Notes under the pieces: model-generated | Told to the model about the DNA's origin: nothing | The model's input: only the letters and a program-made list of their open reading frames with translations | Databases searched by the model: none | Part shown: positions 1 through 25,622 of the stretch, piece by piece | Position numbering within the stretch: position 1 is the stretch's first letter | How the letters are laid out: the number at the start of each line of letters is the position of its first letter | Program-made: the position numbers and the translations under genes | Assembly (NCBI GenBank): GCA_003144275.1 | Contig: NJBF01000006.1 | Location: forward strand, 1-32,000 | DNA: 32,000 bases | Reading direction: 5' to 3' | Origin: Candidatus Heimdallarchaeota archaeon B3_Heim | GTDB lineage: Archaea > Asgardarchaeota > Heimdallarchaeia > Hodarchaeales > Hodarchaeaceae

Positions 1-277
1 TGTGTGCATTAAAGCACAGGCAGTTACAATATACATGTAATAAGAATGTAGTCAATGATGATTTATGTTTATACCACTGTTCTGCATTGTTTGGACGAGT
101 TTGACAATAGCTTAAGCCTCAGTTGTAAATTAAGTTTCTGGCCCACATGGGCTCACTGTTGTGTTTTCTAAGAGATCTTTGAGTTCATGTCTCTTGGAAG
201 CACATTTATTGATTGCCAGCCAACAGAATATTTCCAACAAAGCCAGCCATGTGACTCATCAGTTTATGTATTTTCAG

Positions 278-358
278 CTTATTTCATACCCAATGTTCAC
301 GTGGAAGGGAAAGCAGTCAAAACAGACAACATGGTCAGAGCACCCATGAGATCACCAG
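278..358 (+). CDS. Internal exon A of a eukaryotic xanthine dehydrogenase/aldehyde oxidase-like gene (Mo-cofactor domain)
   Basis: Acceptor tattttcag|278 and donor 358|gttgagt. Translates (x)YFIPNVHVEGKAVKTDNMVRAPMRSP and ends in phase 1. Resembles the YxIPN..G...KT......MRxP motif of XDH/AO. Confidence 0.7.
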
Positions 359-561
359 GTTGAGTTATTTTCCAATGCTAAAAGGAGTTTGAAATAAACA
401 AAAAGCACCATATTACTCAAATACTATAAATCATTACTAGTATTAGAATATGCTGTTCTTAATATGGCTGTGAAAAGGGTGCTCTGGTGAAGCAGTTTTG
501 AGAGGGGGGATATAATGGCACTGAAATAGCCATTATTATTGGTGCTCTTCACTTTTGCCAG

Positions 562-671
562 AAAACTCCCAGGTTGCCATTCTAACCGAGCAAATCATAG
601 AGAAAGTGGCCTTCCACCTGAACATGGATGCCTGGCAAGTCAAAGAGCTCAACCTCCTGTTTAGTGCAAAG
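562..671 (+). CDS. Internal exon B of the same XDH/aldehyde oxidase-like gene
   Basis: Acceptor ctcttcacttttgccag|562 and donor aag|gtatgg at 672. Phase 1 start joins exon A (G+AA=Glu) to give MRSPENSQVAILTEQIIEKVAFHLNMDAWQVKELNL, like the AO motif RxP..Q....E.IIE.VA..L..D...V...NL. The other two frames contain stops. Confidence 0.7.
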
Positions 672-982
672 GTATGGTATATGTGCACCTATTTTCAGGT
701 AACACTTACTTCTTTAACCAGTTTGATTTTGCCTGAAGTGACACAAATAGCATGACACATTTATAGCTATTGTGAAGTGTGTACTTCATTTATGATCCCA
801 CTCTTTATGGTAAATATGAACCACATTTCCTACAGCATAAATTATCATAAAGTTCCAGTAGCATGGATACATTGAACAACTGTATAGCACCATGCATACT
901 TCTATTAAAAAACATTAAAAGGATATTACAAGGATCCTTCACCCTGTTTTAAAAGCCAACATCAACAAAGATATACTGGTAC

Positions 983-1708
983 TCAGAAACGTAAATGCTG
1001 TACTTTTTCAAGGGCTTCAGTGGCATTGCCAAGAGTTTCTGATGCTTTCTTTTCAGCGGCACCAGTAATTTTTTCTGCTTCATGATCAGCAGCCAATTCG
1101 CGACTTCGTGATATCGCCATTTGTATCATCAGAGCAGCCATAGGTGCAACAATCCATGTAACTATTAATGCTAAAGGATTTACATTATTCTCCCTATCAG
1201 AAAAACTAAACCAAATAGCCATTCGAGAAACAAACATGATTGCAGTAGCAAACATCGCAGCAATAGATTGAATAAGCGTATCCCAATGTTTAACGTGGCT
1301 TAGCTCATGAGCTAGAACACCATCCAATTCATCTGACGACATCATCTCTAAAAGGCCTGTATGGACTGCAATAACAGCTTTTCCAGGCGAACGACCTGTT
1401 GCAAATGCGTTAGGAGTCGGATTTTTAACAATAGCAATACGAGGTTGGGGGATACCAGCACTTTGAGCTAATCGTGCAACGCGTGAGTATAACGCGGGTG
1501 CTTGGTGTTCATCAACAACGGTAGCTCTGGTCATCTTAAGAACCAGTGAGTCTGAAAACCAGTAAGATAAGAAGACGAATAAAGCCGAAAATATTAGGAA
1601 TACCATTGGCGAAACATTAAAGACTAGTGAAATTATATAGAATAATCCCAGTAATACTCCAAATAACATTCCAGTTTTCAATAAGTTTGTAATATCCATA
1701 TCTATCAT
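983..1708 (-). CDS. htpX: Zinc metalloprotease HtpX (M48); C-terminus abnormal or truncated
   Basis: PNAFATGRSP, VLAHELSHVKHWD (HExxH) and SRSRELAAD motifs plus N-terminal TM helices. The usual C-terminal THP..RI segment is absent. Confidence 0.9.
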   Translation of the reverse strand: MIDMDITNLLKTGMLFGVLLGLFYIISLVFNVSPMVFLIFSALFVFLSYWFSDSLVLKMTRATVVDEHQAPALYSRVARLAQSAGIPQPRIAIVKNPTPNAFATGRSPGKAVIAVHTGLLEMMSSDELDGVLAHELSHVKHWDTLIQSIAAMFATAIMFVSRMAIWFSFSDRENNVNPLALIVTWIVAPMAALMIQMAISRSRELAADHEAEKITGAAEKKASETLGNATEALEKVQHLRF

Positions 1709-1885: not shown

Positions 1886-2263
1886 TTAAATAAAATTGTC
1901 AAGAAGGAGAACAATTCCACCAATTAAGACTAGGAGTCCACCAAGGCCAGCGCCTAGAATTCCCACCACGATATAAATAATTCCCCAAACGAAGAGGTCG
2001 CCTTTACCTCTACCAGCTAGCTGTTGGTATCCGTAAATAGCTACAATACCCAAAATAATCATGAGAGCAGCAGCAACTAACCAGTCATTTGATCCACCTA
2101 CGGCATCACCAACGAAGTTCATACCTAGATCAATTCCAAATTGATCAAGCTCATAAACTGCCTGATCCAACACATTATTAAGGATCTTTATAATGCCAAG
2201 GACAACCATGAGGATACCGCCAATGACACCTAATATTCTTCCTATAAATTTTAAATCTGCCAT
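1886..2263 (-). CDS. Small multi-pass membrane protein, function unknown
   Basis: Gly-rich hydrophobic helices. ATG at 2263 (MADLK) is preferred over the upstream GTG at 2272. Confidence 0.75.
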   Translation of the reverse strand: MADLKFIGRILGVIGGILMVVLGIIKILNNVLDQAVYELDQFGIDLGMNFVGDAVGGSNDWLVAAALMIILGIVAIYGYQQLAGRGKGDLFVWGIIYIVVGILGAGLGGLLVLIGGIVLLLDNFI

Positions 2264-3181
2264 TTTTATCACAGTTTGTTTTTAATCTTTCCAAATCCAA
2301 GAGATTTTAGGGATTTTGGATACGAATGTAGATTGGTCTTGAGGGAAAATATATACTTTATGCGGAATTATTTGACGTATATTTAATTAAATGAGTAATA
2401 ATGGAAATTCTTTCTTCATTCTTGTAGTCTGGAAAGCATTAACTATTATTGGATATCTTAAGGAAATTTGTTAGAAATTGGGCAAAATTACTAAGTTAGA
2501 AAATATAACCTTAACTTTGTATAAGAATCTGACAAATTTTTGGAGATTCAGGAATAAATATATACAGAACTGTTGGAAAATAATAATAAAATCATCTAGT
2601 CAAATTTTGAAGGCATTAGGTATACTGATCTAATGAATATCTATCCAGGTCTATGGTCATACTAATTTTAACAAGGAAAATGGTGGATTAATTACTGGAG
2701 CAGTTACTTTCAGTGAAGAATCTTAATTTTAAAACAAATTTATGCCTTATACAAGAGACTAGCAACACAGTATGCTATAAATTATAAGAAAGTAATTTCT
2801 GAACCCCATTATCGCGTAATTCACAAATAATTTCCTCATTTTATGTATAATAATCAAATCTACTGGCTTGAAATACAGAATAACCATGTCTAGTACGAAT
2901 TATGTTTTATCTTACCATATGAACAAAGTTCACATGTTCATATGAACTTTCATATTTGTGCATAAAAAAAAATTTTGTCACGATCAAAGTTATTTAGATC
3001 TGAATATGATTGGTGCAACGTTATCACTGGAAAGACACATCATTAAAATCATTGATAAATCACAAAAACGAGAGTTTGAGGGATTTTACCAATATAAGAA
3101 ATCACCTATCCTTTCAGTGGAAAATATTCATCCAAAGTCCCTTTTGTGATGGCCACATAATATGGCAAATTCAAGAGGCCT

Positions 3182-3803
3182 GTGATTGATGCAGTACTGA
3201 TCTTAGACCGAAATAGATCGTTTAGTCAAACAAACAAGCGTTATCTTACGATTGTAGATAGGGACTATGACTTAATGCTTGGGCGTAGGATAAGAAGCCC
3301 AAACTTACTCTATTCTGATAAACGTGATCTCGAGTGTATGCTCTACACATCAACAGCTTTAGAGAAAGTTCTTATCCAAAATGTCTCTTCAGAAAATATA
3401 TTCCGAATTCAACACAAACCAATTTCTTCCTATGCTTGAAGAATGGCAGAACTATGATTTTTTAACAGCCTTATTGATAAAATTAGATGATGGATTACTT
3501 CTTGAATGGGTTGATAAACTCCCGTTGGCACAAAAACTTTATTTTATGAATCTATTATTGGATGTAGATCATACTCGGTATGAAAAATTAATCTCTAATC
3601 TCTTTCTTCCACTAGAAGCTTCAGATTGGGAAAAGCAGATAATAGAAAATGAACATCAGGATCTATCCTGGATTTCAAAAACACATCCAAGAGTCTATCA
3701 ACAAATTAAAAAGCAAATGGCGATTAAGAAGTGCCACGAAATTATCGATTCAGGAATTTTGTATAACATTAGGGAGGATATTAATGGATTGAAAAACCCT
3801 TAG
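3182..3803 (+). pseudogene. Disrupted DUF4435 (TOPRIM-like, AriB-related) gene
   Basis: IVDRDYD...SPNLLYSDKRDLECMLYTSTALEKVL resembles the DUF4435 core. An in-frame TAA lies a few codons upstream, and the coding potential continues in a second frame (3381-3803). Confidence 0.55.
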
Positions 3804-4124
3804 AAGATTGGAGGTTGCAACATCTGTCGCGGCGTGATGAACCATATCGGGGGCATTAGCTTTGCCTGAGGCCTCTTTTTCCATAATCTTATGGTCAACA
3901 TAGGCAATGGCCCCTTCATCTAGAGAGACGGTGAAAAATACGCTGAAAGACTCGTTAAAACCCCCACAAACTGGTTTTAACCCCCAGCGTTCAAAAACTG
4001 GAAAAGACTGGAGGTTTGGATAACACTGATGTTCAGTAAAGAATCACTGGAATAATTTATATATTAAAAAAATTTTCTCTGTAGTTTACAGTTCTGGAAG
4101 TTGTTGGAAGTAGGAGATTGGAAG

Positions 4125-4538
4125 ATGTCGTCTAATGAGGAAAAAATCGAATTTACACTCGAATTGGCCAGTAAACATGAATCGAATATACCGAAACTAA
4201 GTTTTTTAAGCTCGGAATTGGAAAGTAACATCAAACAGTTAGGTGAGACGGAAGTTATCAAAGAATCAATTCCAAAGGCTAAAGGGGCCTTTGGAAAAAT
4301 TAAGGTAATATCGTTGACCAAAGGAGTCAAATATGTTCTCAGAAGAATTAGTGATACCCTTATTAACTCCATTTCGGGTCAAAGAATAAGAATCGGAACA
4401 CCTAGAGGTTGGTTCTTTGAAGGACGGGTGAAAAGAGAAGAACGTGATAAAATAGTCGATGCGCTTCTAAAAGCATTGGCTGATAAGAAAGAACTTAAAC
4501 AACCCCAATCTTTTACTATGGAGTTTGATCCTGATTAA
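4125..4538 (+). CDS. EACC1-like (effector-associated constant component 1) small protein
   Basis: AGGAG 8 nt before ATG 4125. Contains IPKAKG (cf. the P.GAKG motif), a following amphipathic helix and a C-terminal [11 protein letters not shown]. Overlaps a caspase gene, which is the established EACC1 context. Confidence 0.6.
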
Positions 4539-7218
4539 TGAAACTATAAAAGAATTTGAAGCCGAACAGAAATGCGCCATCATCGTTTACACCGCGGAAT
4601 ACGAGAAAGATTACCTCAAGCTCAGTGATACTCTGTCTAATTCCGATATTGGTGGGTACCAACAAGTATTCCCAATTAAATTTGAAAATGGGACGCAACT
4701 TACTAAATCGTTGATTAATGTCTTTCAAGGATTTCGTGATGGAAAATTAAAAAATCCTCATCTAATTGTATTCTATTTCTCTTGCCATGGAGTTCGGGGT
4801 TCAGGTACATACTTTTTATCTACAAAAGCGACTCCGGAATCCCAACATGACAAACTTCGTTTTCTAGTAATAAATGATTTATTGGATGAGTCTTGCAAGG
4901 TCTATAAGCAAGTTTTACTTATAGACAGTTGTTTTAGCAATTTAACGAAAGGAGAAATGTCGATAAGGAATAGTCATGTTCCAGTTCCAACAACAAATGA
5001 CCTCACAGGCAGAGGCCGATTTACTATCTGTTCATCTGACTCTTATCAGATTTCTGAGCATGACCCGTCTAAAAAAACCTCTGTGTTTACTGATGTCCTT
5101 GTTGACGCGTTGACTTCAGGTGAAGCCGATGAAAATGAAGATGGAATAGTCACGGCAGAGGAACTCCGTAGAACTCTCAGCATGAGAGTTAAAAAAAAAT
5201 ATGATCAAAAATCGATCAGCTGGGATTGTGATAGAGAAGGAGTCATTTACCTAGCAAAAAATCCCAATTATCTTGAAATTCCCCTCCAATTAAAGACTTT
5301 AATCCGACCTTTAGCGTGGATATTTACAGAAGACTATTTAAATCAACAACAGATTGAAAAAATACCTATGGCGTTTGAAATTAATGATTTAGTGCGACCT
5401 ATCTCTGAAACAGAAGAGCCTGATTCATGGTATTCTATCTGGTGTGAACATTGGGAACAAAAAGATTGGAAAACCCACAAACGCTGGATAAACAACCGAA
5501 TAACCTATTTTTTGAGCGGTACCAGGGGGTTGACCACAAGTTGTTTGAGTGATATTCTCTTGATGGTTCCCCCCCTCGAACGATCTGTTACTCCTTTATA
5601 TGAACAGTTGATGGACGAACAACGAACTGCCATTTTTGCGCCTTCAGGAACAGGAAAAAGTCGAAAAATGTTGTTTTTAGCGGCTTGGTGGAAGAAAAAT
5701 CATCGACAAGGGGATATTTTCATTTGTAGTAGCCCACAAGAATTGACACACCATGATTGGGCAGATCTTGTGCGGTTATCAGAGGAAAGAACCACTAAAA
5801 GAAACAGACCTGTTTTATATATTTTCGATGATCTCCATCATAACTCAACAGAAGTGCACCTACAAGTGAAATCCTTGCTTGAAAATAGAAAAAGCATGAA
5901 TTTGTTTCTCCTTGGTGGTTATACAACCACGATATATGATGATACTACAAAGCTCAAGAAAATCAGAAGAGATTGGACTGGAATAACCAGTTCACGAATT
6001 GACGCAAATCAGGAATGGAGGGATTGGAAACCGTTTTTTCAAAAATGGAGTGAATGGGTTACAAAAGTCAAGGGAGGAGAAATTACCGCTAAAATTAAAC
6101 CGCATGAGTGGGACTCAATTACATCGCCATGGGAAGTGGCTGTAATTCTGGGAGATACCGTTAAAAAAATTAAAGAATATTTTGCTGAAACAACAGATAG
6201 TAATGTATGCCAAAAATTTATTTATTGGCTACTTGCTGCACTTTTCCTCCTTACTGGAGAAAAAGCTGTGGCTGTTAGTGAAGTTGTTCATGTACTAGTG
6301 CATTCAACCGACGGATTTCAGAATTTACTAAAGCGTGTGTTTGCTTTAAGCGAAATAGGGAATATTACTGAAGAACTCTTGATTTTGTTTAAGTCATGGG
6401 AATGTCCTACTGAGGAAGGATTTCGACTAATACCTCCCCGTCCAGTCTATGACCTCGAAATGGATGAAGAAACTGTGGACTTCTTTCATCAACGGCTAGC
6501 AGATGATTTATTGAAAACGGATGATAAAATAAAACACCTTTTAGTGAAGTGTTTTGAGCAGGCATATGAAGGATTCAAAGAAGCAACCCATGCTTGGGGG
6601 TTCATTTCATCATGGAAGACTTTATCATACTGGATTAAAATTGAAAATAAGCATATAATTGAAATGTCCCTGAATGATATTCCCTATAAGATTGATAATC
6701 GTGAATGGCGTGATAATCTTGAATGGATTGGTAATCTGAAACGACTAGAACGCCTTGATTTAAGAAGTAACTACCTCTCTGCTCTGCCTGAATCGATTGG
6801 TAATCTGAAACGACTAGAACGCCTTGATTTAGATGGTAACCGCCTCTCTGCTCTGCCTGAATCGATTGGTAATCTGAAACGACTAGAACACCTTGATTTA
6901 AGAAACGACCGGTTCTATGACAATGAATCGGTTGGTAACCAACTCTCTGCTCTGCCTGAATCGATTGGCAATCTGCAAAGACTAAAAACTCTTGATTTAA
7001 AGGGTAACCAGCTCTCTACTCTGCCTGAATCGATTGGCGATCTACAACAACTAAGAACCCTTGTTTTAGGGTACAACCAGTTCTCTACTCTGCCTGAATC
7101 GATTGGCGATCTAAAAGAGTTAAGAACCCTTGATTTAGGAGGTAACCAGCTCTCTACTCTGCCTGAATCGATTGGCGATCTGAGACAACTACTAATAAAC
7201 TGTAACATAATACTATGA
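4525..7218 (+). CDS. Caspase-like (C14) protease - STAND-type P-loop NTPase - LRR protein (NLR-like)
   Basis: YFSCHG (His88) and LLIDSCFS (Cys136) dyad; SVFT..LV.AL..GEAD.NEDG.VTAEEL tail; Walker A APSGTGKS (372-379); Walker B VLYIFDD (D435/D436); FFHQRLAD at the end of a winged-helix-like region; six 23-aa LRRs. TTG start is uncertain. Confidence 0.85.
6727..7190 (+). repeat. 69-bp coding tandem repeat (six LRR units plus a partial seventh)
   Basis: Units start at 6727, 6796, 6865, 6964, 7033, 7102 and 7171. Unit 3 is 30 nt longer. The 19-mer CTCTGCCTGAATCGATTGG is identical at all six junctions. Confidence 0.95.
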
Positions 7219-7973
7219 CAAATGAGCACCAGATTGTTACTTACACTGAATATTTGATTATCTTTCTGTTCATTCCCCACTGTTTTTTTAGATGTTCCTC
7301 ATCACAACGATGAGGACGATAATATCCCCTTCTTCCCTTTCTTTTGGTGGTATGAGTTTAGATAGATTTTACTGTTTAGTATTATAGAATACTGTTTTGG
7401 TGAATCATTCATTATAAAAGCGTAAGATGATGCCTTATGTAGGTTTAATTCGTAATCTAATGTTAGTAAGCTCATGAGCCCGAAAACAAAGACTATCGAA
7501 ATCATTTTATTTTTATTCAGTTATGTCTCCACCATTCATCAGTTCATAAAGAAATCGAATATTTTCACATCGATGAATCTCCACAATCAATAGCCTATAG
7601 ACGGAATAATTGAATCTATACATGTATAAATTGTTTTATAAGAAAATGCTTTAGCAAATCTAACAATATCATATTCTTTTTAAGGTTTTTAGATGGAATC
7701 GGTGAAGATTATTTCTTTTTCTTTAATTCTATACACTGCTTCTTGACTATTACTAATAAAATTTCCCATAAATTGCAGAAATAGCCTCTGTAATCCTTCA
7801 AACTCTCTAAAAAGATGAATTATAAATCCTGAATTAAAACTTTGACTCATAAATTCCTCTATTATTTCCCATGTTTCATCTAAACATTTTTGATATTCTT
7901 TGCGATTGGATAATGATAATTTGGTTGTTTTCCCTGAATGAATGTCTTTTATCGAAATAAGTAGGCCTCCTCA

Positions 7974-9056
7974 TTAAGAAAAGGAATACTTGGATAGCAT
8001 TTGCCAAATACTCTTATAAACTTCAGAGGCTAATTCGAGTGAAAAATCGCGTTCTAGTTGAGTTTTACGGAAGAGACCGCCGTTTAAATATGGAAGTGGT
8101 TCAAACTCGTCTAACACATCTATCCGTTGTTCTGGTTCCTTGTTAAAAACTTCAAAGAATAATTTTTGGAATAGATAATGATGAAAAGTTTCTTCATGCA
8201 TCAAAATTGTATCTACTGGATCCAACGGAAGGAGTCTCCATTCTTTGAGCACTTTGACAAATAATAATCTGAAGAAAATCGTTCTATAATACGACACCAA
8301 ATTCTTGCTTTTTTCTTCAAGAGTCCATTTAGAATGAATGTTAGTGAAATAGCGTTCCGGGTCTGTTATAATGGAGTCAAAGAGCTCAATATAATCGTCG
8401 TAGAAGAGGGCAATTGTCTGTTTTTGCTGCTCAAATTGCTCAACCACATAATTCGGAATCTTACCATGATATGTCCTATATATAAGTTCTAACGCCACTT
8501 CTGGATTCAGTTTTTGCTCTATCATCCCATACCCTTCACTTTTCTTCGTATAAAGGATCCAATCTACAAAATTCGTAGCTATACCATGAAAATCCTCATA
8601 CAACCCCTCAAATTCCCGAAACCAACGAGCAACCTGTCCTAATCCGTGCTCAGGATCATCGGTTAGAGATCTCCCAATCGGTTCAACCTCAATCAGCAAT
8701 CCCTTACCTGCTTCATCCCCACTTTTAATGAGATAGTCAGGCCACTTTATAACATCCCGCGCTTCATAGCTTAGTCTTTTTCGCTGTAGAAGTGCCTCAC
8801 GCGCTAATTCTTCGCTTGGGATGCCTAAATTATTAAACAACATTTCAATAAATTGACTAGTAACCGTTTCGGGTTTGACCTTTGGATCAAACCATTTACT
8901 ATCAACATCAATATAACGATGTTCGGAGACTCTATCAAAGAGCATGCTACTGTCAATTAACTGGTCAAATCTCCCTTTAAATGCTTCTTGACAATCAAGT
9001 AGAATATCATTGTATGACTTACTAGGCAAACTCTCCACTTCTTTCTGTCTCGTCAC
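7974..9056 (-). pseudogene. N-terminal part (endonuclease plus helical domain) of a type IIG/Eco57I-like restriction-modification enzyme; methyltransferase half missing
   Basis: WPDYLI..LLIEVEP (PD-(D/E)xK-like), GIATNFVDWILY, RLLFVKVL, LFFEVFNK.PE.R and LPYLNGGLF. The ORF stops where the MTase domain normally begins. Confidence 0.7.
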
Positions 9057-9313
9057 ACCTTTAATATTTTTAATTCTTTCTATAATTAGCTAGTTTATTC
9101 CTATAAGAAAATCGTGATATCTGACCGAGTCCTAAAGAATCAGATTCAAGAAAAAAATACTGCGACGTTAAGAATAAAATTAGAACAATAGCTATGATGT
9201 AGCTACGCTTGGGAATTTTACTAAAACTAAATTAACAAAAATCTTTATTCTCATTTCCATTAAACAAAAATGTCGTACTATTTAAATAAACATTTTTTTT
9301 CATTTTTATTAGC

Positions 9314-9523
9314 TTTTTAGTTATTCTCTGAGGTTTAACTTGTCAATTTATCCTATTTTACTTTGTTTTTAAATGTTATATTTTGTATAATCTTTACTTT
9401 CATTTTCAGCAGATGCCAACCTCAGAGTAATTAAATGACTACTATTCTTAATAATATTGACGTTTTTAGTCATTTTCTGAGGTTTAATTTACTAATTTAA
9501 CCTAGTTAACTTTGTTTTTATAT
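9314..9523. repeat. Pair of imperfect 61-bp direct repeats with an internal inverted partial copy
   Basis: 9314-9374 vs 9463-9523 match at 51/61 positions. AACCTCAGAG (9418-9427) is the reverse complement of CTCTGAGGTT (9326-9335). Confidence 0.8.
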
Positions 9524-9540
9524 TTTCCATTTTTTAATCT

Positions 9541-10194
9541 TTAGTTTTTCTCTCCATCGTTATGTGTGTTCTCTACCTTATTCTTCTTTTCTATCCACGG
9601 AGGGTCTTCAGGCCAATTATTAATTATTTTTATTACCCTTCTATGAGTCCAATACATCATACCAAGTAAACTGAGTGTAAAAATGGCTAAAATTACCGGA
9701 ATAGGGAGGGGTTCTGTGTTTCTAGGAAAAATAATCTTAGTTAAATCATATACCACTGGCACAAAAAAGATCGTATAAAATACGAAATAGAAAATTGACA
9801 ACAAAGTAACAAATGTTCTCCATTGAGAAAATAATTTTGATGCTTTTCGAAAAGAAATAAGGTCTAAAGTTGAATCCAAGTTTATTGAGGCATTACCTTG
9901 CTCTGTTTTCCAATATATTTGAATTATTCTGGTTCTTTTTTCTTGAAGTTCGATTGATCGGAAAAAAAGCTCAAATACCAATACAGATAATACTAGAATA
10001 AGTGATAATAGAAAATTCATAAAGGAATCTATACTAGACTCATCTATTTTTCCATTAAAATATGCCAATATACCTCCTATACTAATTGCACTAAAAATAC
10101 TGGTTAAGGTGACCCACCAAACCTTATAGGAATCCTTCTTTTGATCTATTAGATATAATGCGTAATATAACTGTTTTTCCAAATTGAATGGCAT
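9541..10194 (-). CDS. Hypothetical membrane protein (about 4 TM helices)
   Basis: 217-aa ORF with ATG start and four hydrophobic segments. Confidence 0.7.
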   Translation of the reverse strand: MPFNLEKQLYYALYLIDQKKDSYKVWWVTLTSIFSAISIGGILAYFNGKIDESSIDSFMNFLLSLILVLSVLVFELFFRSIELQEKRTRIIQIYWKTEQGNASINLDSTLDLISFRKASKLFSQWRTFVTLLSIFYFVFYTIFFVPVVYDLTKIIFPRNTEPLPIPVILAIFTLSLLGMMYWTHRRVIKIINNWPEDPPWIEKKNKVENTHNDGEKN

Positions 10195-10298
10195 TCTGAT
10201 CTTATCTCCTTAATTGTTTCATAATTAATAACTTACGTCTAATTCCCTATTAAATCGATAATATCCCTAAAATTTCCCCTTCTGTTCTGAATTCCCCT

Positions 10299-10634
10299 CT
10301 AACCTCTTTCTTTTATTAATTTTATCTCAGAATAAATCTTAAGACTCATATTAACTTTTTTAATAAAATTATTTATCAAATCATCATTACTTTCCAAAGA
10401 AATAGTTTTCTCATTGAGTGTAAAAATTGGTTTTTTCTCATAAATGTCATTGATCCTACCATTTAAATCCAATATATTGTTCCTAATGTTCAAAAACTTT
10501 CTAATAGAAGAAATTCATTTATATTTGGAAAAAATACTAATTGAATTTTGAATAATTCTCAATTGATCTTCGTTTATGCGTTTATGCAAGGAGTGAATGC
10601 TTGGAGTGTCTTTACTCTTGTTAAATGTTCTCAT
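10299..10634 (-). pseudogene. Hypothetical gene interrupted by one in-frame TGA (10515-10517)
   Basis: ATG at 10634 reads 39 codons to TGA, then the same frame stays open to the stop at 10299. Confidence 0.35.
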
Positions 10635-10778
10635 TGTGATGGAGATTTGATGAAAATCTGAAAGTGGAGATGAGTTCAGGTTGGCGGTGGATGTATTGAT
10701 TAAAAATCTTTCTAAAGATTAAAGACCCTAGAAGAAGTATTACAACAGCTTGTTTTAATGCTCTGGTTTACGTGTTAA

Positions 10779-11530
10779 TCAATCGTTTATCCAACAGTCT
10801 GGATTATGTTTTTTTACTGCTTCCCAAAAATATTTCGTCTGAGGAAAAGAAATTTGTCTTACTGCTCGTGTTTTAGAGTTAATAACTGTGAAATCACTCC
10901 TTGGTTCACCATTTTTATTTACTGTATCAAATTTAATATCTCTAATAATGTTTATCGCTAGAGTTCTGTCAAATGGTACTCCATGCTTGAATAACATTGA
11001 TTTCTTGCTTCCTTTCCAAATTCTATATTCATTGGTATAATTATCACATCGAATGTGGTCATTATTAGCAATTTCTGAAAAATCTTCCAATATATTAGGA
11101 TCATAAACTTGTTTAAATTCAAAAAATCCTATAAAATAAAATTGACTGTCATAGGGACTTATATTTTTTTGGAAAGAAGCAAAAAAAGCTATGAAATCTC
11201 CTTTTTCAAGATTTTTTAATGCACTAATACGAGATTTTTTTATTGAATTTCCGTATGTAAAAGTATCAAATTCTGGATCATAATGAACAATAGTATCTGG
11301 GTCTCTAACATATTCCCCTAAACCAACACTCGCATACGTTCGTTCTCTCTGAATATTTACACCTTTACACGTCCGATGCAAATGATGAGATGTGTGAGCT
11401 TTTGGGCAATCATCGTTATTACACCACAAAGGAATAGGCATGTATGTAAATTGATTAATAGAGTCAATAGGAGGAAAATTCAATCCTTTTTTGCGTTCTC
11501 AATATATGCTTGATAGACTTTCGCTCGCAT
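10779..11530 (-). CDS. Nmad3-family (nucleotide-modification associated domain 3) protein, split by a -1 frameshift near its start
   Basis: FTYMPIP, VHYDPEFDTFTYG, LEKGDFIAFFASF, FYFIGFF and NNDH motifs. The ATG 11530 frame ends at GCA AAA AAG GAT TGA, and the -1 frame continues GLNFPPI. Confidence 0.65.
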
Positions 11531-11558
11531 TGTTACCCAATCCTTGAGTTTTTGACTT

Positions 11559-11855
11559 TTACAAATTCCAAAGGTAATTAATATTCTCATCAAGAAAAGT
11601 GTCGAATAATATAAAGAATCTCACCCCCAATCCAAATTCTGCATACCAAATAGAATATATCGATAGAATCGATGATAAATGCATAGCAGCTAGAATATAG
11701 ATTCCTAGAGTTATGTACATCCACTTCTGAATTGGTTTATCCTCATGTATAACTTTTTGATGGAGAAGGTTTGCCTCAAATAGTTCTCCCTCAAAAAATT
11801 CAGTGTATTTTTCTTTCTGCAAACTGAAATTCCTCCTCGTGAAAAATCCATCCAA
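11559..11855 (-). CDS. Hypothetical membrane protein (DUF5658-like); N-terminus probably frameshifted
   Basis: The frame extends upstream as LGGTLFILTILDGFFT...FEANLL, resembling the LD..LT...E.NPL pattern. Upstream ATGs (11925, 11932) are in other frames across an A6 run. Confidence 0.35.
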   Translation of the reverse strand: MDGFFTRRNFSLQKEKYTEFFEGELFEANLLHQKVIHEDKPIQKWMYITLGIYILAAMHLSSILSIYSIWYAEFGLGVRFFILFDTFLDENINYLWNL

Positions 11856-11968
11856 AATAGTTAAAATAAATAATGTTCCACCGAGCCAGCATGGGATTTT
11901 TTAACCACTGATCTAGTCCAGTCATAGTTCATTCACGTCCGATTTAGTACTATTGTTTTTTTTCCTTC

Positions 11969-12064
11969 TCACATTTCACGTATCAAAGTTCGTTCCCTTG
12001 ACAATGGTTTCCTCTCTTCTAGCAAGATCTTCTTAGCTAATTCAAGAAATGTTAATTTTGGTAT
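11969..12064 (-). pseudogene. Remnant of a HARE-type winged HTH N-terminus
   Basis: Reads IPKLTFLELAKKILLEERKPLSRE between stop codons, matching the typical MTF.E.A..VL.E...PLS start of HARE-HTH domains. Confidence 0.35.
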
Positions 12065-12701
12065 CTATTCTAACCATTCCATTTTACGTGAGTTCAAAGT
12101 TATAGATAATTATCAGGCTTAAGAACTTAATTATAATTCAGGAATCTCCCTTGAAAAGAAAAAAACAGAATATTTTTCTTCATCTTTTCTTATTGAACAA
12201 AATGGTGGCCCCTCTGGAAATTCAACATTATCTTCTGCCTTCATTTCTATCTATTAATCCATTCTAGCAAAAAATAAGAATTGGATCTTCTAGAATTAGA
12301 TACCCCTTTCTTTTTTTTCATCTGAAAATTCAATATTGGTCCCTGCTGAAATATCTATAATCTGACTCATTGAAACCAAAAATAATAGACTTCCTAATAT
12401 TATCTGATTGGAAATCTTCCTATGTATCATTTTTAACCCCTTCAAAACAAGTTATTCATTTCTGTGAAGAAATAATTTTAAAAAACTTTCTAGAAATCTG
12501 AAGTAAAATATCTAACGCTTAATTTGGAATCTAAGATTGAAATTCTGAGAGAATGTTTCGTTTGTTTGAAAATGTTTTGTAAACTGACTAAATTTTCCTT
12601 CTTCTAATAAAAATGGTAATGACAATTAATAACAAAGATATTGGTGTAATTAAAAAATCTGTTTTATTGAGTATTCCCTTCTAATGCCTTGTATTTACTC
12701 C

Positions 12702-12932
12702 TTAATCATCCAATCTTTTCTTTAAATCTCCACATCTTTCACATTTCAGAATAATTGATGCCCCAAATTTAAGGCTATTATAATAATGACCAAAAATGAG
12801 ACAAGTAACCTTTTTTACTAAAACATCAAAAAACGTTTTTGTTGAATAAATAATAACACCTACGAATCCTAAAATAATGAATAACCATACATCACTAGTT
12901 TGAATTGATATATTACCTATTTCAATTGACAA
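12702..12932 (-). CDS. Small protein with one TM helix and a Cys/His motif (DUF1660 prophage-protein-like)
   Basis: CLIFGHYY...CERCG pattern. TTG start preceded by GGGA. Confidence 0.5.
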   Translation of the reverse strand: MSIEIGNISIQTSDVWLFIILGFVGVIIYSTKTFFDVLVKKVTCLIFGHYYNSLKFGASIILKCERCGDLKKRLDD

Positions 12933-12969
12933 TCTTATTCCCTACTTAACTTTTTGAATATTTTCATGA

Positions 12970-13272
12970 TCAAACACTTTTAAAATCTGCTTTTGCTAGA
13001 ATATATCCCAACACAAGAGACATAATTAATAAAAATTGATCTCCTTGAAGAATTTGAATAGCAACTAGATATAATGTTCCAAGAATAATTATTATTACAA
13101 TAAAAGCTTGAATAGCGAATTTTTTAAATTCTAGGCTTGAACTTTCTTTACTCATTCTCTCATACATTTGATCTATTTTGGTTTTCTTGAGAAAATTTGC
13201 TATTGCATCCAACAATTCTTCCATAGTTACTTCTGGTTGTTGTTCATCCTGATTATCTTCTGTAGATGACAT
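12970..13272 (-). CDS. Hypothetical membrane protein (2 TM)
   Basis: GTGA element before the ATG, acidic N-terminus and two C-terminal hydrophobic helices. Confidence 0.65.
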   Translation of the reverse strand: MSSTEDNQDEQQPEVTMEELLDAIANFLKKTKIDQMYERMSKESSSLEFKKFAIQAFIVIIIILGTLYLVAIQILQGDQFLLIMSLVLGYILAKADFKSV

Positions 13273-13784
13273 CTTTTTTCACTTACTTATTAATCTTCTA
13301 GAAAAACTATATTATAATCTCTTCCTTCATCTAATTGAAAGAATAATAGAACTTAAGATGAATCTTTCATTTATAAATACTCTTTGCAGTCTTTGATGAT
13401 AGCTGTTATTAATGCTAATTGCTATTCTTTGGGTAATTTGTCAATAGAAAAGCCAAATAATTGTCTAAGTAAGGTTAAAATCATGTCTAATGCTTGGTGT
13501 TCTTCAAGGAGAAGAGTAGTACCTGGATACTTCAATAATTTCACATAAAACTCTTTGGGGTTAAGTATGATTAGATCACTCGTCCAGCATTTATGTGATT
13601 ACCGAATTTTCTTTTTCTTTAGAAAGCTTCTTTTTAAGTTTATTAATTTGAGCCTTCCAGTAGCCCGAATAGTCGTTTCAACAATTTTCGAACAGAAAAT
13701 ACCTTATGACTTACCTTTAATAGGTAATGGAACATTAGAATGGTATGGGGAAGAATATGACTCCTAGTTAACTTTTCTCTTCTT

Positions 13785-14420
13785 TTACCATTCTGCAATG
13801 AGTTTTTCAAAGTATTTTTTTCTCTGTTCTCCTATAGAGTCAAAAATTGCTTTTTCCTCCAAACCTTGGGTAATTCCGCTTTTGATTTCCTCGAAATACG
13901 GATAATTGGCCAAATCACGATCGTGAGCATTATAGAACATAATCCAACATTGACTATTTAAAAGCGCTATTGGAATTTGAGGTTTTGATTCCCATTCCCA
14001 TTTGCGATACGCCCCTGAATGGGACATCCATACTAATTCATGGAGCAAGGACGGTTTATATTTCCATGTAATGGCAAGTCCTTCTCGATAATTCTCTCCA
14101 AGACAATCATAAAGCATATTCTCGTAGTCATCATCTACAATTGCAGTAATATAGAAGTTCCTTTCTTCACTTACATACCACGAGACGATAGGATAGATAT
14201 GGGTGCGTTCAACTTCTTTCTTATATTCCCACTTGGGTATAATCACAGATTCAATAAAAATACGTGGAATAACATACATATAATGTTCATCTTTCGAATC
14301 TAATAATGTAATTAACTCAGATTCGGTTTTTACATTCAAAATATCCTTATCGTATTGAATAAATGTGTAAGGTGACCCAACTTTCTCATAACCATCACGA
14401 CTTTTTATATACACTATCAT
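13785..14420 (-). CDS. Hypothetical protein
   Basis: 211-aa ORF with ATG start and natural composition. No motif recognised. Confidence 0.7.
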   Translation of the reverse strand: MIVYIKSRDGYEKVGSPYTFIQYDKDILNVKTESELITLLDSKDEHYMYVIPRIFIESVIIPKWEYKKEVERTHIYPIVSWYVSEERNFYITAIVDDDYENMLYDCLGENYREGLAITWKYKPSLLHELVWMSHSGAYRKWEWESKPQIPIALLNSQCWIMFYNAHDRDLANYPYFEEIKSGITQGLEEKAIFDSIGEQRKKYFEKLIAEW

Positions 14421-14793
14421 TCATCCCAAAATTGGCGTCAGTTCAAATTATATCTTGGATTCATTCTTTTTAAGCTTTTCTTCCAACTTTATATCTTCAA
14501 AATTAGAATCTGGGAAGTTGATATCTACTCCAGAAACATTGGGTGTGAGAAAAAGGAAAGGGTACTGAATTAATGCCACACGAGAAATCCATGCTCGATT
14601 TTATTCATCATCCTTCCCCAGTCCACTCGCTTACTTTACCTCGCTGGTAAATAGGGTCAATGTCTAAGATCCAGCACGCTGTGATTGACCCCTTGCGATA
14701 ATAACCTTGTGATTTGTTCATAGAAGTTCCAGTCACTAAACCACTCATTCCCATGGAAAATTGTATCTCCGTTGAAAAGTCTGTTAAGGATAA

Positions 14794-18266: not shown

Positions 18267-18400
18267 TTCCTCTTTCTGTTCATGGGAAGGATATAGAAAT
18301 TGCCATTAAATTCATTTATTTAAATGGGTCCTAATAAATCATCTTTACACTTCATTATCACTTTCTAAAGTATTTCTATGTTATTAGAGGTCAATTACTA

Positions 18401-20467
18401 ATGTTCAACGTTAAAGATGTATATAGTGAACATAATAATCCGATTATTACTAGCTACGAGGATAGTATTAGTCGAATCCTACAAATTGTTGAAGATATTC
18501 AAAATACAGCCAGTGTTTCAAAAAGGCCAATGCTTGAATTTCTCCATTCGATAGCAAAATTAGTCATTTCTATGTGTGATCTTGAGAAACAACTATCCCC
18601 TGAGTACTTTTATTCTAAATCACTTGAAAAACTCAATGAAGAGAATAATGGGTTTTATAAAGAGCTTTTTCCAGAAAATTATCAAATCTCTTATGCAAAC
18701 CCAACTTTTTGTGTCGAAATTTTTGGTGATCGTTATGGTCAACTACTCTCATATTTCTATTGCCTCTACAAAAACTATCTGAACTACATATTTTTCCATA
18801 AAATCTTTAAAATGGAAGAATACAATCAATTGTTCATTAGAGTATATGAACTTGTTGTACAATCGGAAGATGTTGACTATGATTCCTTAAAACAGTTAAT
18901 CACGAGTGTTCAAATCAAAGATAAATCTATTGAACAATATTATCGATATAAAGAAATGTATGATAAAGAGTTTGCCTTTTTTGCAAATATTGTTGAAAAT
19001 TCCGACTTAAGTGATTATAGATATCTATTTCGTGCTGGTAAATACATTAGTGAGAATGAGCTTCGAAGTGCTAAATTTTTATCCTCCTATTCCTCTGATA
19101 AATTGAATTCTTTAGCCAAAACCATTGTTAATGGTTATTTTCGAGGGTTTGAACGAGATAACAAACTCGAGCATCTTAAGAACAAATCAACAATAGGTCT
19201 CTATTATAAAATTGGATTAGAACGTTTATACAAAGAAATAATCACTGAATTTAGGAAAGAGGGATTAGAAACAGTTTTTCTGTCTGCTTATTCAACCAAA
19301 CCCAACAAACAATATGATAATGATCATAAATTTGATATTGCTCTCTATATTTCTGAAGAATTTAATGATATCGCATTATCTAGCTTGGAATCTGGGATGA
19401 AAGACAATCTTAAAGTTTTAAAACAATATTCTGGCATTCTTTACATAGAAAACTTTGGTGAGAAACTCTTTAGTCCAGAACGTAAAGAAGAAATTTTGAA
19501 ACTTAATGAGGATCAACAAAAATTGTATCAAGCATTTAACATGAAAATCTATCAACAATTAGATGAATACATTCCCCAATCTGAAACCTCCTTTTGTATC
19601 GTAGCTTTCCCAGTACCCGAAATTGGGAACGATTATGAAGCAATTTTCGAAGAAACCGTCAATTTGAATATGTTGGATTCTGAAAACTTTGAAAAGATTC
19701 AACAGATTATGATAGATGTTCTTGATCAAGCAGATTATGTTCATATTAAAGGCAAGGACAATAATAAAACTGATTTCAGGGTGAAAATACCTAATTTATT
19801 GGATCCTAGTAAGAATACGAATTTTATCAATTCAGGCGCTTCCGTTAATATACCTGCTGGTGAAGTATTCACTTCCCCCAGTCTTTCTGGTACAAATGGA
19901 ATCCTACATGTTGAAGAAACTTATCAAAACGGATTACGGTATGACAATTTAGAATTGAAGTTCGAGGACGGTTATGTAACTGATTTCTCCTGTTCGAACT
20001 TTGACTCTTTGGAAGATAATCGAAAATATATCGAAGAAAATTTATTCTTTCCCCATAAGACTTTACCTCTTGGAGAGTTTGCGATTGGTACCAATACTAT
20101 CGCCTATATGATGTCTAAAAAATTTGGTATAATGAATTTATTGCCCATCTTAATCTATGAGAAAACAGGGCCCCATTTTGCTCTAGGGGATACCTGTTTT
20201 TCTAGAGCGGAAGATTCTGTCAAATTTAATCAATTTACTCAGAAAAAATTCTGTGCGGTTGATAATGAAAAATCGATCCTGCGAAAAACTGATGTGAACG
20301 AAGCATACACAAATAAGCACCAAGACATTGTACTTGGTTTTGATTCAATTGACTACATTACCGCGGTTTTACAAAATGGCGATCACGTAGATATCATTAG
20401 AGATGGTCGTTTTACCCTGAAAGGTACTGAGGAGTTGAATATTCCTTTAGATCAGAAAAGTTCCTAA
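18401..20467 (+). CDS. M29-family (thermophilic metalloprotease-like) aminopeptidase, long form
   Basis: NIPAGEVFTSP, LGEFAIGTN, EKTGPHFALGD and HQDI metal-ligand motifs. Confidence 0.85.
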   Translation: MFNVKDVYSEHNNPIITSYEDSISRILQIVEDIQNTASVSKRPMLEFLHSIAKLVISMCDLEKQLSPEYFYSKSLEKLNEENNGFYKELFPENYQISYANPTFCVEIFGDRYGQLLSYFYCLYKNYLNYIFFHKIFKMEEYNQLFIRVYELVVQSEDVDYDSLKQLITSVQIKDKSIEQYYRYKEMYDKEFAFFANIVENSDLSDYRYLFRAGKYISENELRSAKFLSSYSSDKLNSLAKTIVNGYFRGFERDNKLEHLKNKSTIGLYYKIGLERLYKEIITEFRKEGLETVFLSAYSTKPNKQYDNDHKFDIALYISEEFNDIALSSLESGMKDNLKVLKQYSGILYIENFGEKLFSPERKEEILKLNEDQQKLYQAFNMKIYQQLDEYIPQSETSFCIVAFPVPEIGNDYEAIFEETVNLNMLDSENFEKIQQIMIDVLDQADYVHIKGKDNNKTDFRVKIPNLLDPSKNTNFINSGASVNIPAGEVFTSPSLSGTNGILHVEETYQNGLRYDNLELKFEDGYVTDFSCSNFDSLEDNRKYIEENLFFPHKTLPLGEFAIGTNTIAYMMSKKFGIMNLLPILIYEKTGPHFALGDTCFSRAEDSVKFNQFTQKKFCAVDNEKSILRKTDVNEAYTNKHQDIVLGFDSIDYITAVLQNGDHVDIIRDGRFTLKGTEELNIPLDQKSS

Positions 20468-20506
20468 AATTTTTAAGTCATACCTCAGTCGAAGATCCTG
20501 GAGTAG

Positions 20507-21754
20507 CTAGAGTTCATCCCAGTATGTTTTTCTCTCAGTATCTTGCATCAAAGCATTTCTACGATATTTAAATCCTGGATAACCAGTTGAAAGAGGATCT
20601 ATTTTCTCAATCAACCGTAAAGTACGTTTTATCTCCTCAGATGGTCGTTCTTCTGAACTTAATACTTCAACTACTTTAACATCTGATTCTAGCTCAAGAA
20701 GAAGGGCATATGAACTAATATAAGCTTTAATAAACGAATCTGCTATCATCAAAATAATTACAGCAAGTATACAAAGTATTAACAAGGACTTGTGGATGAT
20801 AGAGTTTTCTGATGTTGTGGAAAAGACGACAAGTCCGAATAATGCAAGATATAATGTGTATAAGGTGTTATGAATAATATAATAGAGATAATAGGTAAAA
20901 CGACTTTCCAATGAAAGCCAACATAATTCTCGAACGCAATAAATTAGGCTACTATCCCCTTCTGCTTGAAAATGAGCAATTTTCGAATAAGCGAGATATA
21001 CAGAATTTTCTACAGTTGTTCCTATCGCTAACTTCCCGAAATAGTTTGGAGGAAGAGCAGCCAGTCGAATTTTGACATCTTTAAATCCTAATTTTTTCCC
21101 CCAATTTTTTAATTCTTGTCTAATTTTTTCATCAGGAGTACGATCATCTAATGCCATAACTCTTTGATTATATTCATCAATGTGATTTAAATATGAATTT
21201 AATATTAGTAATACTCCTATAAATACCATAACTAAACCTAATATTTGTAAAATCCCAGTAATGGGTAGCTCATTTCCTTCATCTGCGTTACTACTAAAAA
21301 GTGAGAAAATCAATAGTAGGAAGAATATAGGAAATAGTGCAGATTGGACACGCAAACCGAATAGCTCAAGTAATCTTACCAGATCTTGAATCACCGAGCC
21401 CGTTACACGGAATTTTCTCATCCTTCGATATATTCTCTGTGTCGCTGCCACTCCAATAAGTAAGAATATACAGCTAATAATTACGACGAGAGACAAGATG
21501 AGATCTTGATCAGAAAATACTATTAATACTAAGGTTAAGCTTGTAAATATTATTGGAAGTATAATTAGGAGAATGAAAAGAACTATTTTCTCCTTCCCAA
21601 ATATCAAAAATGGGTCTAATTCTGGATCGTGAGCTTTCTTATGCATTCCTAAAGATATTTCGTATTCTCTCATTAATCTATGACCCTCATAGGTTTTAGA
21701 TAAATTTATATCAGAGTTAAAGCAAGAGATTAAAACAATATCTCCCTTTGACAA
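20507..21754 (-). CDS. Polytopic membrane protein with a degenerate M48 peptidase-like C-terminal half
   Basis: Several TM helices. CVRELC, LELESD and STGYPGFKYRRNAL sit where M48 proteases have AHELGH, E..AD and STHP....RI..L. The start may be a downstream ATG. Confidence 0.7.
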   Translation of the reverse strand: MSKGDIVLISCFNSDINLSKTYEGHRLMREYEISLGMHKKAHDPELDPFLIFGKEKIVLFILLIILPIIFTSLTLVLIVFSDQDLILSLVVIISCIFLLIGVAATQRIYRRMRKFRVTGSVIQDLVRLLELFGLRVQSALFPIFFLLLIFSLFSSNADEGNELPITGILQILGLVMVFIGVLLILNSYLNHIDEYNQRVMALDDRTPDEKIRQELKNWGKKLGFKDVKIRLAALPPNYFGKLAIGTTVENSVYLAYSKIAHFQAEGDSSLIYCVRELCWLSLESRFTYYLYYIIHNTLYTLYLALFGLVVFSTTSENSIIHKSLLILCILAVIILMIADSFIKAYISSYALLLELESDVKVVEVLSSEERPSEEIKRTLRLIEKIDPLSTGYPGFKYRRNALMQDTERKTYWDEL

Positions 21755-21862
21755 TTCTTAAAATGAATCAATATTATAGCTCTGACCCCTAACCGATCCA
21801 TATCCAATATATGTAGATTATTAAATTACTGAAAATCTACCTCACAGAGTGAAATGGATACT

Positions 21863-22933: not shown

Positions 22934-23351
22934 TTATTCTGCCTTCTGAATTCTCTGAAAGATCTTCGAGGAAAATTGATATATAGATTATGTCAATCTA
23001 TTCGAATAATCTATTCATAAAAACCTGTTATTCGAAGCAAAAAATTGGATCATTCTTGAAGCAAAATTCACTCTCAAAAAAAATCATAATTACCCCTGTT
23101 ACAACTTAACTAAATCCTGTGTTTATTGTGAAGAAGGACTAAGAACTAAAAAAGAGAATGAATTTTTATCAAATATCAATTCTTGCCCTGTAAGAAAAAA
23201 GCAACTTATTGAGTGAACTCAAGGTTACCCAACAAGTTTCATAAAAATGAAAGAAAGAAGAAGGGGAGAGGGGCTAGAATGATAACTCATCTAGACTGGG
23301 GTTGACAACTATCTATTATTTTATGGGCAAATATGAGTAAAAATACCACGG

Positions 23352-23365
23352 AAAAGAAAAAAAAA
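23352..23365 (-). terminator. Possible archaeal oligo-T terminator after the substrate-binding protein gene
   Basis: Minus strand T9-C-T4 tract about 45 nt past the stop codon. Confidence 0.4.
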
Positions 23366-23407
23366 GAGGAACAGGTTTTTCCTCAATTCTACTGATGAAT
23401 TTTCAGC

Positions 23408-24961
23408 TCACTTACGCCATTTGCGACTGGTAATAATGACGAGGGCCGACAACAAGATACTTAGTATTCCTGGAAAAGGGCTAATACTTGGGGAAGGAGA
23501 AGTTGATGTATCTGAATCTTCTCCGGTAGTACTCGATGTATCTGAATCTTCTCCGGTAGTACTCGATGTATCTGAATCTTCTCCGGTAGTACTCGATGTA
23601 TCTGAATCTTCTCCGGTAGTACTTGACGTATCTGAATCTTCTCCATGAATACCCTTTTTTATATTTGTCACTACATTGTTGGCAATAGACCATTCTGACT
23701 CATCTTTCAAGTAGAATGCAGATGCATCATTTAGGATAGATGTTGCGGAGGTTGCTCCTGAAGGTATAGCATATTCACCAAATTTAACGTAGGTAGCATC
23801 TCTGAGTTGGACATAATCATACCGACCGGTAACTTCTCCAAGATCGTTAAACTTGATAGTTCCTGTTGCACCTTCATGTGTGACTGCATAAAGGGCAGTT
23901 AATAAGGCATCACCCTCAGTAGTTCCAGCAGCTGCCAATCCTTTGGCTGCAACATATACAGCATCATAAGCAAAGGGCGCATATGAATTGAAGGGAGTCC
24001 CAGTATCTTGACTATTCTTAGGTTTTTCTAGAAAGTTCCATACAGGATCGAACCAGGTAACATTGAAGTCAGCTAATCCTGTACCCTCTGCTGGCGCGGG
24101 ATTAGTACCGATTGAATAATTCATAGCTTCTTTGACTTGTACGTCCGTAATTGTCGCTTGAGTTGACCACCCATCAGTGGTTAACCAGACATAATCCAAC
24201 ATACTAAGCTCGTATGCTTTCTTCATAACAGTTTTTGCATCTGCATCAATAAAGTTCCCAAGAATAAACTCAGGATCTTCATCTTTAAGAGCCTGAACTT
24301 GTGCAGAAACATCAGTTGCACCACCATCGAATGATTGATCTGTAAGGATAACTCCAGCATAAGCTGATTTAAAGACATTAATTAAGCCTGCACCATAAGA
24401 ATCACTTGTATGAATTACGGCTCCTCTTGTCCATCCAAATGCTTTCACAAGCTCAGCCATAGCTAGACCTTGATCTGCATCCGAGGCAGCTACTCGCATG
24501 AAGTAAGGATATAACGTCCGATTGCTTAATATCGGTGAAGACGACGCATAGGAGATTTGAACAACTTTATTCGGAGTTAGTGTACTGGCAATTGCGGCAC
24601 TTACACTACTTCCAGAAGATCCAATAACCATATCCGCACCCCAGGCTAGAAGTGTTTCTGCAGCGGCAGTGCCTCCTGCAGCAGTGTTTAAGTCATCTTG
24701 CACATTAGGTACAAGTGTGACTCCTTCAGGTAGGATCCGGTCCATACCTGTTTGATTGTTGATTTCATAGATAGCGATCAGAAATGCATCTCGGCGATCT
24801 GGACCAGCATCGGGTCGTACCGTAATGGGAAACACACCTCCAATTTTAATCTCAGTTGGTAGAGCATGTGTTTTTTGGGGTGCTGCTCTAGCAGTAGTAG
24901 TCATTACTGAAAGAAACATTACTCCAATTAACAAAAGTGTTAGCTTTACACGGGTTTTCAT
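23408..24961 (-). CDS. Surface-anchored type I periplasmic-binding (Venus flytrap/ANF receptor/LivJ-like) substrate-binding protein
   Basis: Signal peptide; IKIGGVFP, VIGSSGSSVS, QISYASSSPILS, YPYFMRV and AYDAVY motifs; Ser/Thr/Asp linker; C-terminal PFPG + TM + RKWRK tail. Confidence 0.9.
   Translation of the reverse strand: MKTRVKLTLLLIGVMFLSVMTTTARAAPQKTHALPTEIKIGGVFPITVRPDAGPDRRDAFLIAIYEINNQTGMDRILPEGVTLVPNVQDDLNTAAGGTAAAETLLAWGADMVIGSSGSSVSAAIASTLTPNKVVQISYASSSPILSNRTLYPYFMRVAASDADQGLAMAELVKAFGWTRGAVIHTSDSYGAGLINVFKSAYAGVILTDQSFDGGATDVSAQVQALKDEDPEFILGNFIDADAKTVMKKAYELSMLDYVWLTTDGWSTQATITDVQVKEAMNYSIGTNPAPAEGTGLADFNVTWFDPVWNFLEKPKNSQDTGTPFNSYAPFAYDAVYVAAKGLAAAGTTEGDALLTALYAVTHEGATGTIKFNDLGEVTGRYDYVQLRDATYVKFGEYAIPSGATSATSILNDASAFYLKDESEWSIANNVVTNIKKGIHGEDSDTSSTTGEDSDTSSTTGEDSDTSSTTGEDSDTSSTTGEDSDTSTSPSPSISPFPGILSILLSALVIITSRKWRK
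23505..23644 (-). repeat. 30-bp coding tandem repeat, about 4.7 copies (GEDSDTSSTT stalk)
   Basis: Unit gatgtatctgaatcttctccggtagtactc repeated head-to-tail with no spacers. Confidence 0.95.
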
Positions 24962-25144
24962 ATTTTTACACCAATTAATTTCTTATATTGATCTCGGAAA
25001 TTAGTCCCCGCTTGAAGTATTTGTTCTCCAAAAAATATTGACAATCCAATGACAGTATTTCCGAGATAATTTTCTAACGAGCTCATAATGCTATTTAAAT
25101 TTATATATTGGGAAGTCATTAATCATTAAGATGGTTCTAAGCAC

Positions 25145-25384
25145 TTAAAAACAAAAGGAACTACTGTAAAGAATTACAATAGGTTTGATGTCAGTATTGG
25201 TAGGCTTTTTCACGCTAGTATTGTTAATTATTCCTACATCTCTCAGCTCTTGATGAATTCTGTCGTCACAAGTTCCACAGAGACGTTTAACGCTTGTGGA
25301 GAGGCAGTAAGACTTGCTAGTCAGCAGGCGCACGTCGGGGAAGCAGGAAGAACAACACCACTGCCGACTTGGGATATCTATTCC
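25145..25384 (-). pseudogene. Open frame with a B-box-like Cys/His motif, probably the 3' part of a frameshifted gene (5' part 25378-25659)
   Basis: CSSC-x12-C-x8-CGTCDDRIH. The frame is open from 25384 to the stop at 25145. One extra A at ~25386 would join it to the upstream ORF. Confidence 0.35.
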
Positions 25385-25622
25385 TTATTGTCCGATTTGG
25401 AAAAGCCTTTCAGAACGGGTATTGTAGTATGATTCAAGTAATTTATTTTGTCTACCTGATAATTTGCCAAATCATTAGCTAGAAATTCTTTACAACCTAC
25501 TAAATCCAACAACTCGCAACCTGATAAGTTAAAAACACGAGTAAGATCGATAGGTATCCTTTTTATGGGTCTGTATGAGAAAATCGGGTTAAAATGAATA
25601 TTAGTTTTTGAGGTAATGTATC

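Follow-up and report, generated by a model that had tools for sequence, protein, structure and literature searches.

A CpG-depleted, intron-bearing fragment at the start of a Hodarchaeales contig is very probably an inter-genome chimera

The first kilobase of a 109,676-nt contig (NJBF01000006.1, hereafter C93) of Candidatus Heimdallarchaeota archaeon B3_Heim appears to hold part of a spliced gene of the xanthine dehydrogenase (XDH)/aldehyde oxidase (AO) family, which raises the question of whether this archaeon carries eukaryotic DNA on its chromosome or whether DNA of two genomes was joined artificially. The metagenome-assembled genome (MAG) to which C93 belongs comprises 3.95 Mb in 103 contigs, is rated 94% complete and 3.9% contaminated and serves as a GTDB species-representative Hodarchaeales genome. 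The Hodarchaeales are central to arguments on the origin of eukaryotes, and the debate over the branching point of eukaryotes has already been influenced by chimeric MAGs (PMC12222021). We analyzed the first 32,000 nt of C93 (the window, whose base 1 is contig base 1) together with the remainder of the MAG and other genomes of the genus. Read from the assembled contigs alone, the tail at positions 1-1061 is an artefactual inter-genome chimera with a probability of about 0.95.

Composition and coding content of the contig start

Base composition marks positions 1-1061 as a foreign, CpG-depleted eukaryotic, probably animal, genomic tail. The initial annotation had described CpG as nearly absent in 1-1080, and the counts agree, with five CpG dinucleotides in that stretch (observed/expected ratio, o/e, 0.13). 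Positions 1-980 contain three (o/e 0.088), which is the minimum among all 7,895 980-nt windows of the genome (mean 0.75). Over the whole tail, five CpG are observed where 28.4 are expected (o/e 0.13; Poisson P = 8e-8), together with o/e values of 1.45 for TpG and 1.65 for CWG, and the CpG o/e of the remaining window (1062-32000) is 0.71. Loss of CpG with an excess of TpG and with CWG kept is the signature of CpG-only methylation, as in animals. The tail is present as a single copy in the MAG and has no match in the 21 other genomes of the genus. Nor was it found in the JGI metagenomes, and no further assembly of this species turned up.

Two exons separated by a 203-nt GT..AG intron of matching phase had been proposed for this tail, and this gene structure was borne out by an in-frame splice to the peptide first noted. 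On the forward strand, a partial upstream intron (1-277) ends in the pyrimidine-rich acceptor TTTTCAG and is followed by exon A (278-358, 81 nt, phase 1/1), an intron (359-561) with the weak donor GTTGAG and a good acceptor, exon B (562-671, 110 nt, phase 1/0) with the donor GTATGG, and a CpG-poor partial downstream intron (672-1061) that is cut by the junction. All four splice sites occur in correct order and phase, both exons are intact, and removal of 359-561 is the sole frame-keeping, stop-free splice that yields a full-length product. The outer exon borders at 278 and 671 are plausible rather than fixed, as an acceptor at 220 and donors at 663-698 score about equally. No third exon or further Mo-hydroxylase homology was found in 1-277 or, in any frame, in 672-1061; that homology ends at the outer splice sites fits introns and not a prokaryotic pseudogene. 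A 66-aa prokaryotic gene call (P0001; 555-755, forward strand) covers exon B and part of the downstream intron and is spurious.

The two exons match adjacent stretches of the Pfam MoCoBD_1 profile (exon A, 187-211, E 0.0043; exon B, 215-244, E 0.00079), each alone falling under the gathering cut-off, and exon B also gives an Atlas feature match of 0.92 to MoCoBD_1 clusters. The spliced product does match the Mo-hydroxylases, with an ungapped 59-aa alignment to a native enzyme of this archaeon (17/59 identical, BLASTP) and 19-21 bits against a profile of four native enzymes, compared with a maximum of 5.7 among the two-exon products of 100 shuffles. By hand count, 19 of the 59 residues are identical in mouse AOX3 and 18 in a bacterial nicotinate dehydrogenase (3hrd). 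The membership of the predicted peptide in the XDH/AO (Mo-hydroxylase) family can be regarded as established, and in its donor the fragment is probably two exons of a gene of this family. The family assignment of the initial annotation is thus upheld, whereas its eukaryotic subfamily does not follow from protein similarity, as the peptide appears equally distant, at about 30% identity, from bacterial, archaeal and mouse enzymes. The eukaryotic call comes instead from the exon-intron layout and the methylation signature of CpG loss.

As in the MoCo domain of solved family members (PF02738; mouse AOX3, 3zyv; bovine XDH, 1fo4; 3hrd), the ungapped alignment spans the segment behind the conserved Y-x-x-P-N motif, with the invariant Arg in register and likewise the Gln and Glu downstream of it. 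Unlike those members, the tail holds only 63 of about 1,330 residues, the length of the fused 2Fe-2S/FAD/Moco polypeptide of eukaryotic type, has about 30% identity to all of them and reads R-S-P-E in place of R-G-F-G, its Glu being created at the splice junction. The spliced codon region (356-363 + 562-563) encodes this Glu where Mo-hydroxylases usually have Gly (R-x-x-G), which may point to a divergent paralogue as the donor gene. A different acceptor, which would bring back the conserved Gly, was rejected because it is out of frame. At this level of identity the peptide is not a mammalian XDH/AOX orthologue, and 63 residues are too few to place a subfamily or an activity. The archaeon itself has four intact native Mo-hydroxylase large subunits of 777-793 aa, encoded on contigs C49, C45, C44 and C30 (L027-L030), which are distant from the tail (24-29% for the two that align).

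Searches for the donor gave no source sequence. Exon B compared by phmmer with 1.84 billion proteins retrieved only the ORF of C93 itself and a repeat-protein artefact. Word-index searches with exon B and with an exon-like frame of contig C72 (described below) gave no match, and PDB searches with single exons gave no true match. Neither the JGI metagenomes nor the GTDB genomes contained a match to the exact and degenerate DNA patterns used, and no other assembly encodes P0001 or the truncated HtpX described below. No Rfam family, informative repeat or target-site duplication was found.

The junction within htpX

The foreign part had initially been thought to end near position 980, but orthologous htpX genes place its end at 1061. 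Nucleotide homology (blastn) ends at 1062 in six of eight orthologous loci, with 1064 and 1069 as the end points of the remaining two, so the junction (1061..1062) lies inside htpX codon 216. The retained part (1062-1708, reverse strand; codons 1-216) is the undecayed native 5' three-quarters of a Hodarchaeales htpX (Peptidase M48, PF01435), with 95% amino acid identity over residues 1-217 to the congener G013. Forty-seven of the 55 differences from G013 in this part are at third codon positions, and the retained part is under purifying selection. The complete ORF (983-1708, reverse strand) is an HtpX of 241 aa that matches eight congeners over residues 1-217 and then diverges, reading through the foreign DNA for 25 chance codons and a stop (983-1061, reverse strand) that replace about 65 native residues and have no homology to 30 orthologues. 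Over residues 1-216 the identity to homologues is 68-96%, and several of these homologues are named Hodarchaeales HtpX, which makes the host an Asgard archaeon. Unlike them, the C93 version is without the conserved C-terminal 65 residues, including F-S-T-H-P-P. The gene is intact in the eight congeners, whose proteins have 278-298 aa, and full-length orthologues measure 278-285 aa. The missing 3' end (about 65 codons) was not found in the MAG, where, at 94% completeness, such an absence is no proof of a gap. Both the 241-aa HtpX and the 66-aa ORF are NCBI/nr singletons found on C93 only.

Next to the junction, an AT-rich stretch of 12 nt is followed by a mismatch (1062-1074). The mismatch causes an Ala212Glu substitution 12 nt from the junction, in a column that is invariant in 30 of 30 homologues. 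This stretch may represent a short, imperfect homology between the two source sequences, in which case the true crossover could lie up to about 13 nt further to the right. An origin by restriction and ligation (AATT/GATC) was considered and dropped, as orthologue homology continues through the AATT at 1068-1071. The contig is contiguous, and there are no Ns at the join.

Upstream of htpX, a native 128-aa membrane-protein gene (1886-2272, reverse strand) is syntenic with htpX in congeners, and the rest of the window (1062-32000) is not implicated in the chimera. The window parts covered by contig C213 of G013 are syntenic outside an island of about 12 kb (2967-14712), which is missing from G013, whose contig links both flanks directly; G013 also does not have about 23018-25620 and about 18333-21861.

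The tail occupies the very start of C93 and has no second archaeal flank. Two source genomes are present on one contig, and they meet inside a conserved gene that is intact in eight congeners, at a terminal position, in an assembly with repeated cases of the same kind. The initial annotation had judged a chimera far likelier than a eukaryote-to-archaeon insertion, a judgment supported by the position at the contig start, by the htpX cut in mid-gene, by the absence of the tail from 21 congeners and by the other gene-cutting joins of the MAG.

Other joins and foreign contigs in the same genome

On contig C85, a HAD/NagD-like gene breaks off at 39723, where about 850 nt of animal-like DNA take over (C85:39723-40569; L039, L044, L045). 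The HAD-type gene resumes about 200 nt later in its sequence at the very end of contig C33 (C33:22616), and it is continuous in the congeners G013 and G003. The pair C85/C33 looks like a coverage gap of which one tip was capped by foreign DNA.

The GH3 gene located after htpX in G013, G018 and G003 is found on contig C35. At the far end of this contig lies a 280-nt CpG-poor and TpG-rich piece (o/e 0.33; about 18900 to about 19180), beyond which the DNA is 96-99% identical to that of three genomes of another Asgard family (2.2 kb compared), which, judging by a Rab-like gene, is probably Lokiarchaeia. In this foreign end a NurA-like gene is cut at residue 239 of 426; it has matches in 53 of 54 genomes of the other Asgard family and in none of 16 congeners. 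The same region (C35:18900-22371; L014:5401-8872) also holds a Ras-family GTPase that is liable to misattribution to the Hodarchaeales. Nearer the GH3 gene, just upstream of it, there is a decayed TnpB (IS605-type) remnant (C35:16386-16613; L014:2887-3114), which forms the boundary of a species-specific island lying between htpX and GH3. Position C35:16265 was considered as a matching second junction and rejected, as the DNA there begins with the decayed TnpB remnant of a genus-native family and is more likely a real island edge.

Contigs C13 and C40 (L017 and L016) consist entirely of Gmr1-like Ty3/gypsy retrotransposons with the integrase upstream of the reverse transcriptase, and C13 includes a SCAN domain; both contigs are mis-binned into the MAG. 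The Gmr1 layout, with the integrase before the reverse transcriptase, has been described from marine animals (PMC8220671). Two other contigs have CpG-depleted, non-native starts, C72 (1 to about 500; L038), with an exon-like frame of about 50 codons in its tail, and C90 (1 to about 1526; L018), the rest of which is bacterial-looking.

A scan of the whole genome placed the strong animal-like, non-coding segments at contig ends or close to them, and the two interior matches are coding. With a model trained on tails that we chose ourselves and evaluated by leave-one-out, 10 of 206 contig ends score as foreign (>=10), compared with 0.07% of 3,000 interior starts; this set of ten is not animal-like throughout. 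The 3' ends of C67, C71 and C10 and the 5' ends of C49 and C80 are shorter, foreign-scoring and possible further chimeric tips. One end of C98 also scores as foreign and was rejected as animal DNA, as it resembles a bacterial integrase region.

Origin of the join and its consequences

We consider it somewhat more probable than an even chance that the join was made in the assembler. The sample would have been rich in animal DNA, and the archaeal assembly path would have met a short coverage gap over the 3' end of htpX, where the tip may have been extended into an unrelated, low-coverage animal path via a short AT-rich match. Being attached to an archaeal contig of 110 kb, the tail would then have been retained in binning. 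Such a product corresponds to the misassembled, chimeric contigs described with GUNC, in which fragments of different genomes share one contig and are carried into a bin (PMC8201837). What sets C93 apart is that its foreign part is a mostly intronic eukaryotic tail of 1 kb that was seen through its CpG loss and the truncated orthologue, and a gene-based check of prokaryotic lineage would probably have little to score on it. Misassemblies are relatively rare compared with mis-binning (GUNC, PMC8201837), and this rarity counts against a chimera, although the MAG to which C93 belongs shows several joins.

A join formed earlier, in a library molecule, by template switching during amplification or by ligation of two fragments, is a substantial possibility that nevertheless falls short of even odds. 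A strand mis-primed through about 12-20 nt of imperfect homology would be expected to leave a change such as Ala to Glu at an invariant column 12 nt away from the junction, and several of the junctions lie in AT-rich tracts; the single substitution could, however, stem from a consensus error or represent a true variant. Against a library origin, an intronic tail of 1 kb present in a single copy has to have been put together from several reads, tails at short gaps on different contigs fit the extension of assembler tips, and no adapter sequences were found in the MAG.

Whichever step made the join, the donor is most likely an animal, judging by the composition of the tail. A plant, alga, fungus or protist with CpG methylation, which would be a variant of the same chimeric origin, is an unlikely donor. 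The lack of any donor match in the searches would be consistent with such a source, and R-x-P in place of R-G-F-G may also occur in plant aldehyde oxidases. Against it, CWG is not depleted in the tail, contrary to what the CHG methylation of flowering plants would leave, and the other eukaryotic contigs of the MAG are Gmr1-type elements of the kind described from marine animals (PMC8220671).

It is very improbable that the archaeal chromosome really did take up environmental animal DNA very recently, for instance through end-joining at a break, and that htpX was knocked out as a result. The contiguous join without Ns, the possible microhomology at the junction and the labile neighborhood, with its 12-kb island upstream and the TnpB remnant before the GH3 gene, would all be compatible with such an integration. 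A genuine insertion should, however, be flanked by host DNA left and right, with the rest of the split target gene present, and neither a second archaeal flank nor the other half of htpX is there. In addition, strongly animal-like pieces occur at contig ends or close by, the native gene interrupted on C85 carries on in C33, the tail has no counterpart in 21 congeners, and integration would also need to explain the gene-cutting join of C35 to DNA of another Asgard family. The intron in the tail is not spliceable in an archaeon. It is just as improbable, in its more specific form, that a Hodarchaeales archaeon captured intron-containing animal DNA by microhomology-mediated joining and that the other animal-like tails are further captures. 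If such captures were real, they would show directly that a lineage close to eukaryotes is still taking up DNA from animals.

A prokaryotic origin, with the tail as an xdh/coxL-type pseudogene in decay that carries an insertion of 203 nt with GT..AG ends arisen by chance, is equally hard to credit, since the similar identity to bacterial, archaeal and mouse enzymes, the bacterial origin of those Atlas look-alike clusters that have a taxon record and the weak first donor are outweighed by homology that stops at both outer splice sites (none in 277 nt upstream or 390 nt downstream), by four ordered, in-phase splice sites around two intact exons and by a CpG o/e of 0.09-0.13 with TpG excess, far outside the range of the genome.

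On the chimeric reading, the fragment would have no role in the archaeon and most likely does not exist there. The tail is almost certainly not a real archaeal feature, and it stands as a warning about data quality rather than as archaeal biology. Animal-like DNA and DNA of another Asgard family are joined to native contigs in a MAG that represents its species, and two false proteins from the C93 tail, the 66-aa ORF and the 241-aa HtpX, have already entered NCBI/nr. A eukaryote-like gene from this MAG deserves trust only when it is internal to its contig, free of introns, normal in CpG content and present in congeners.
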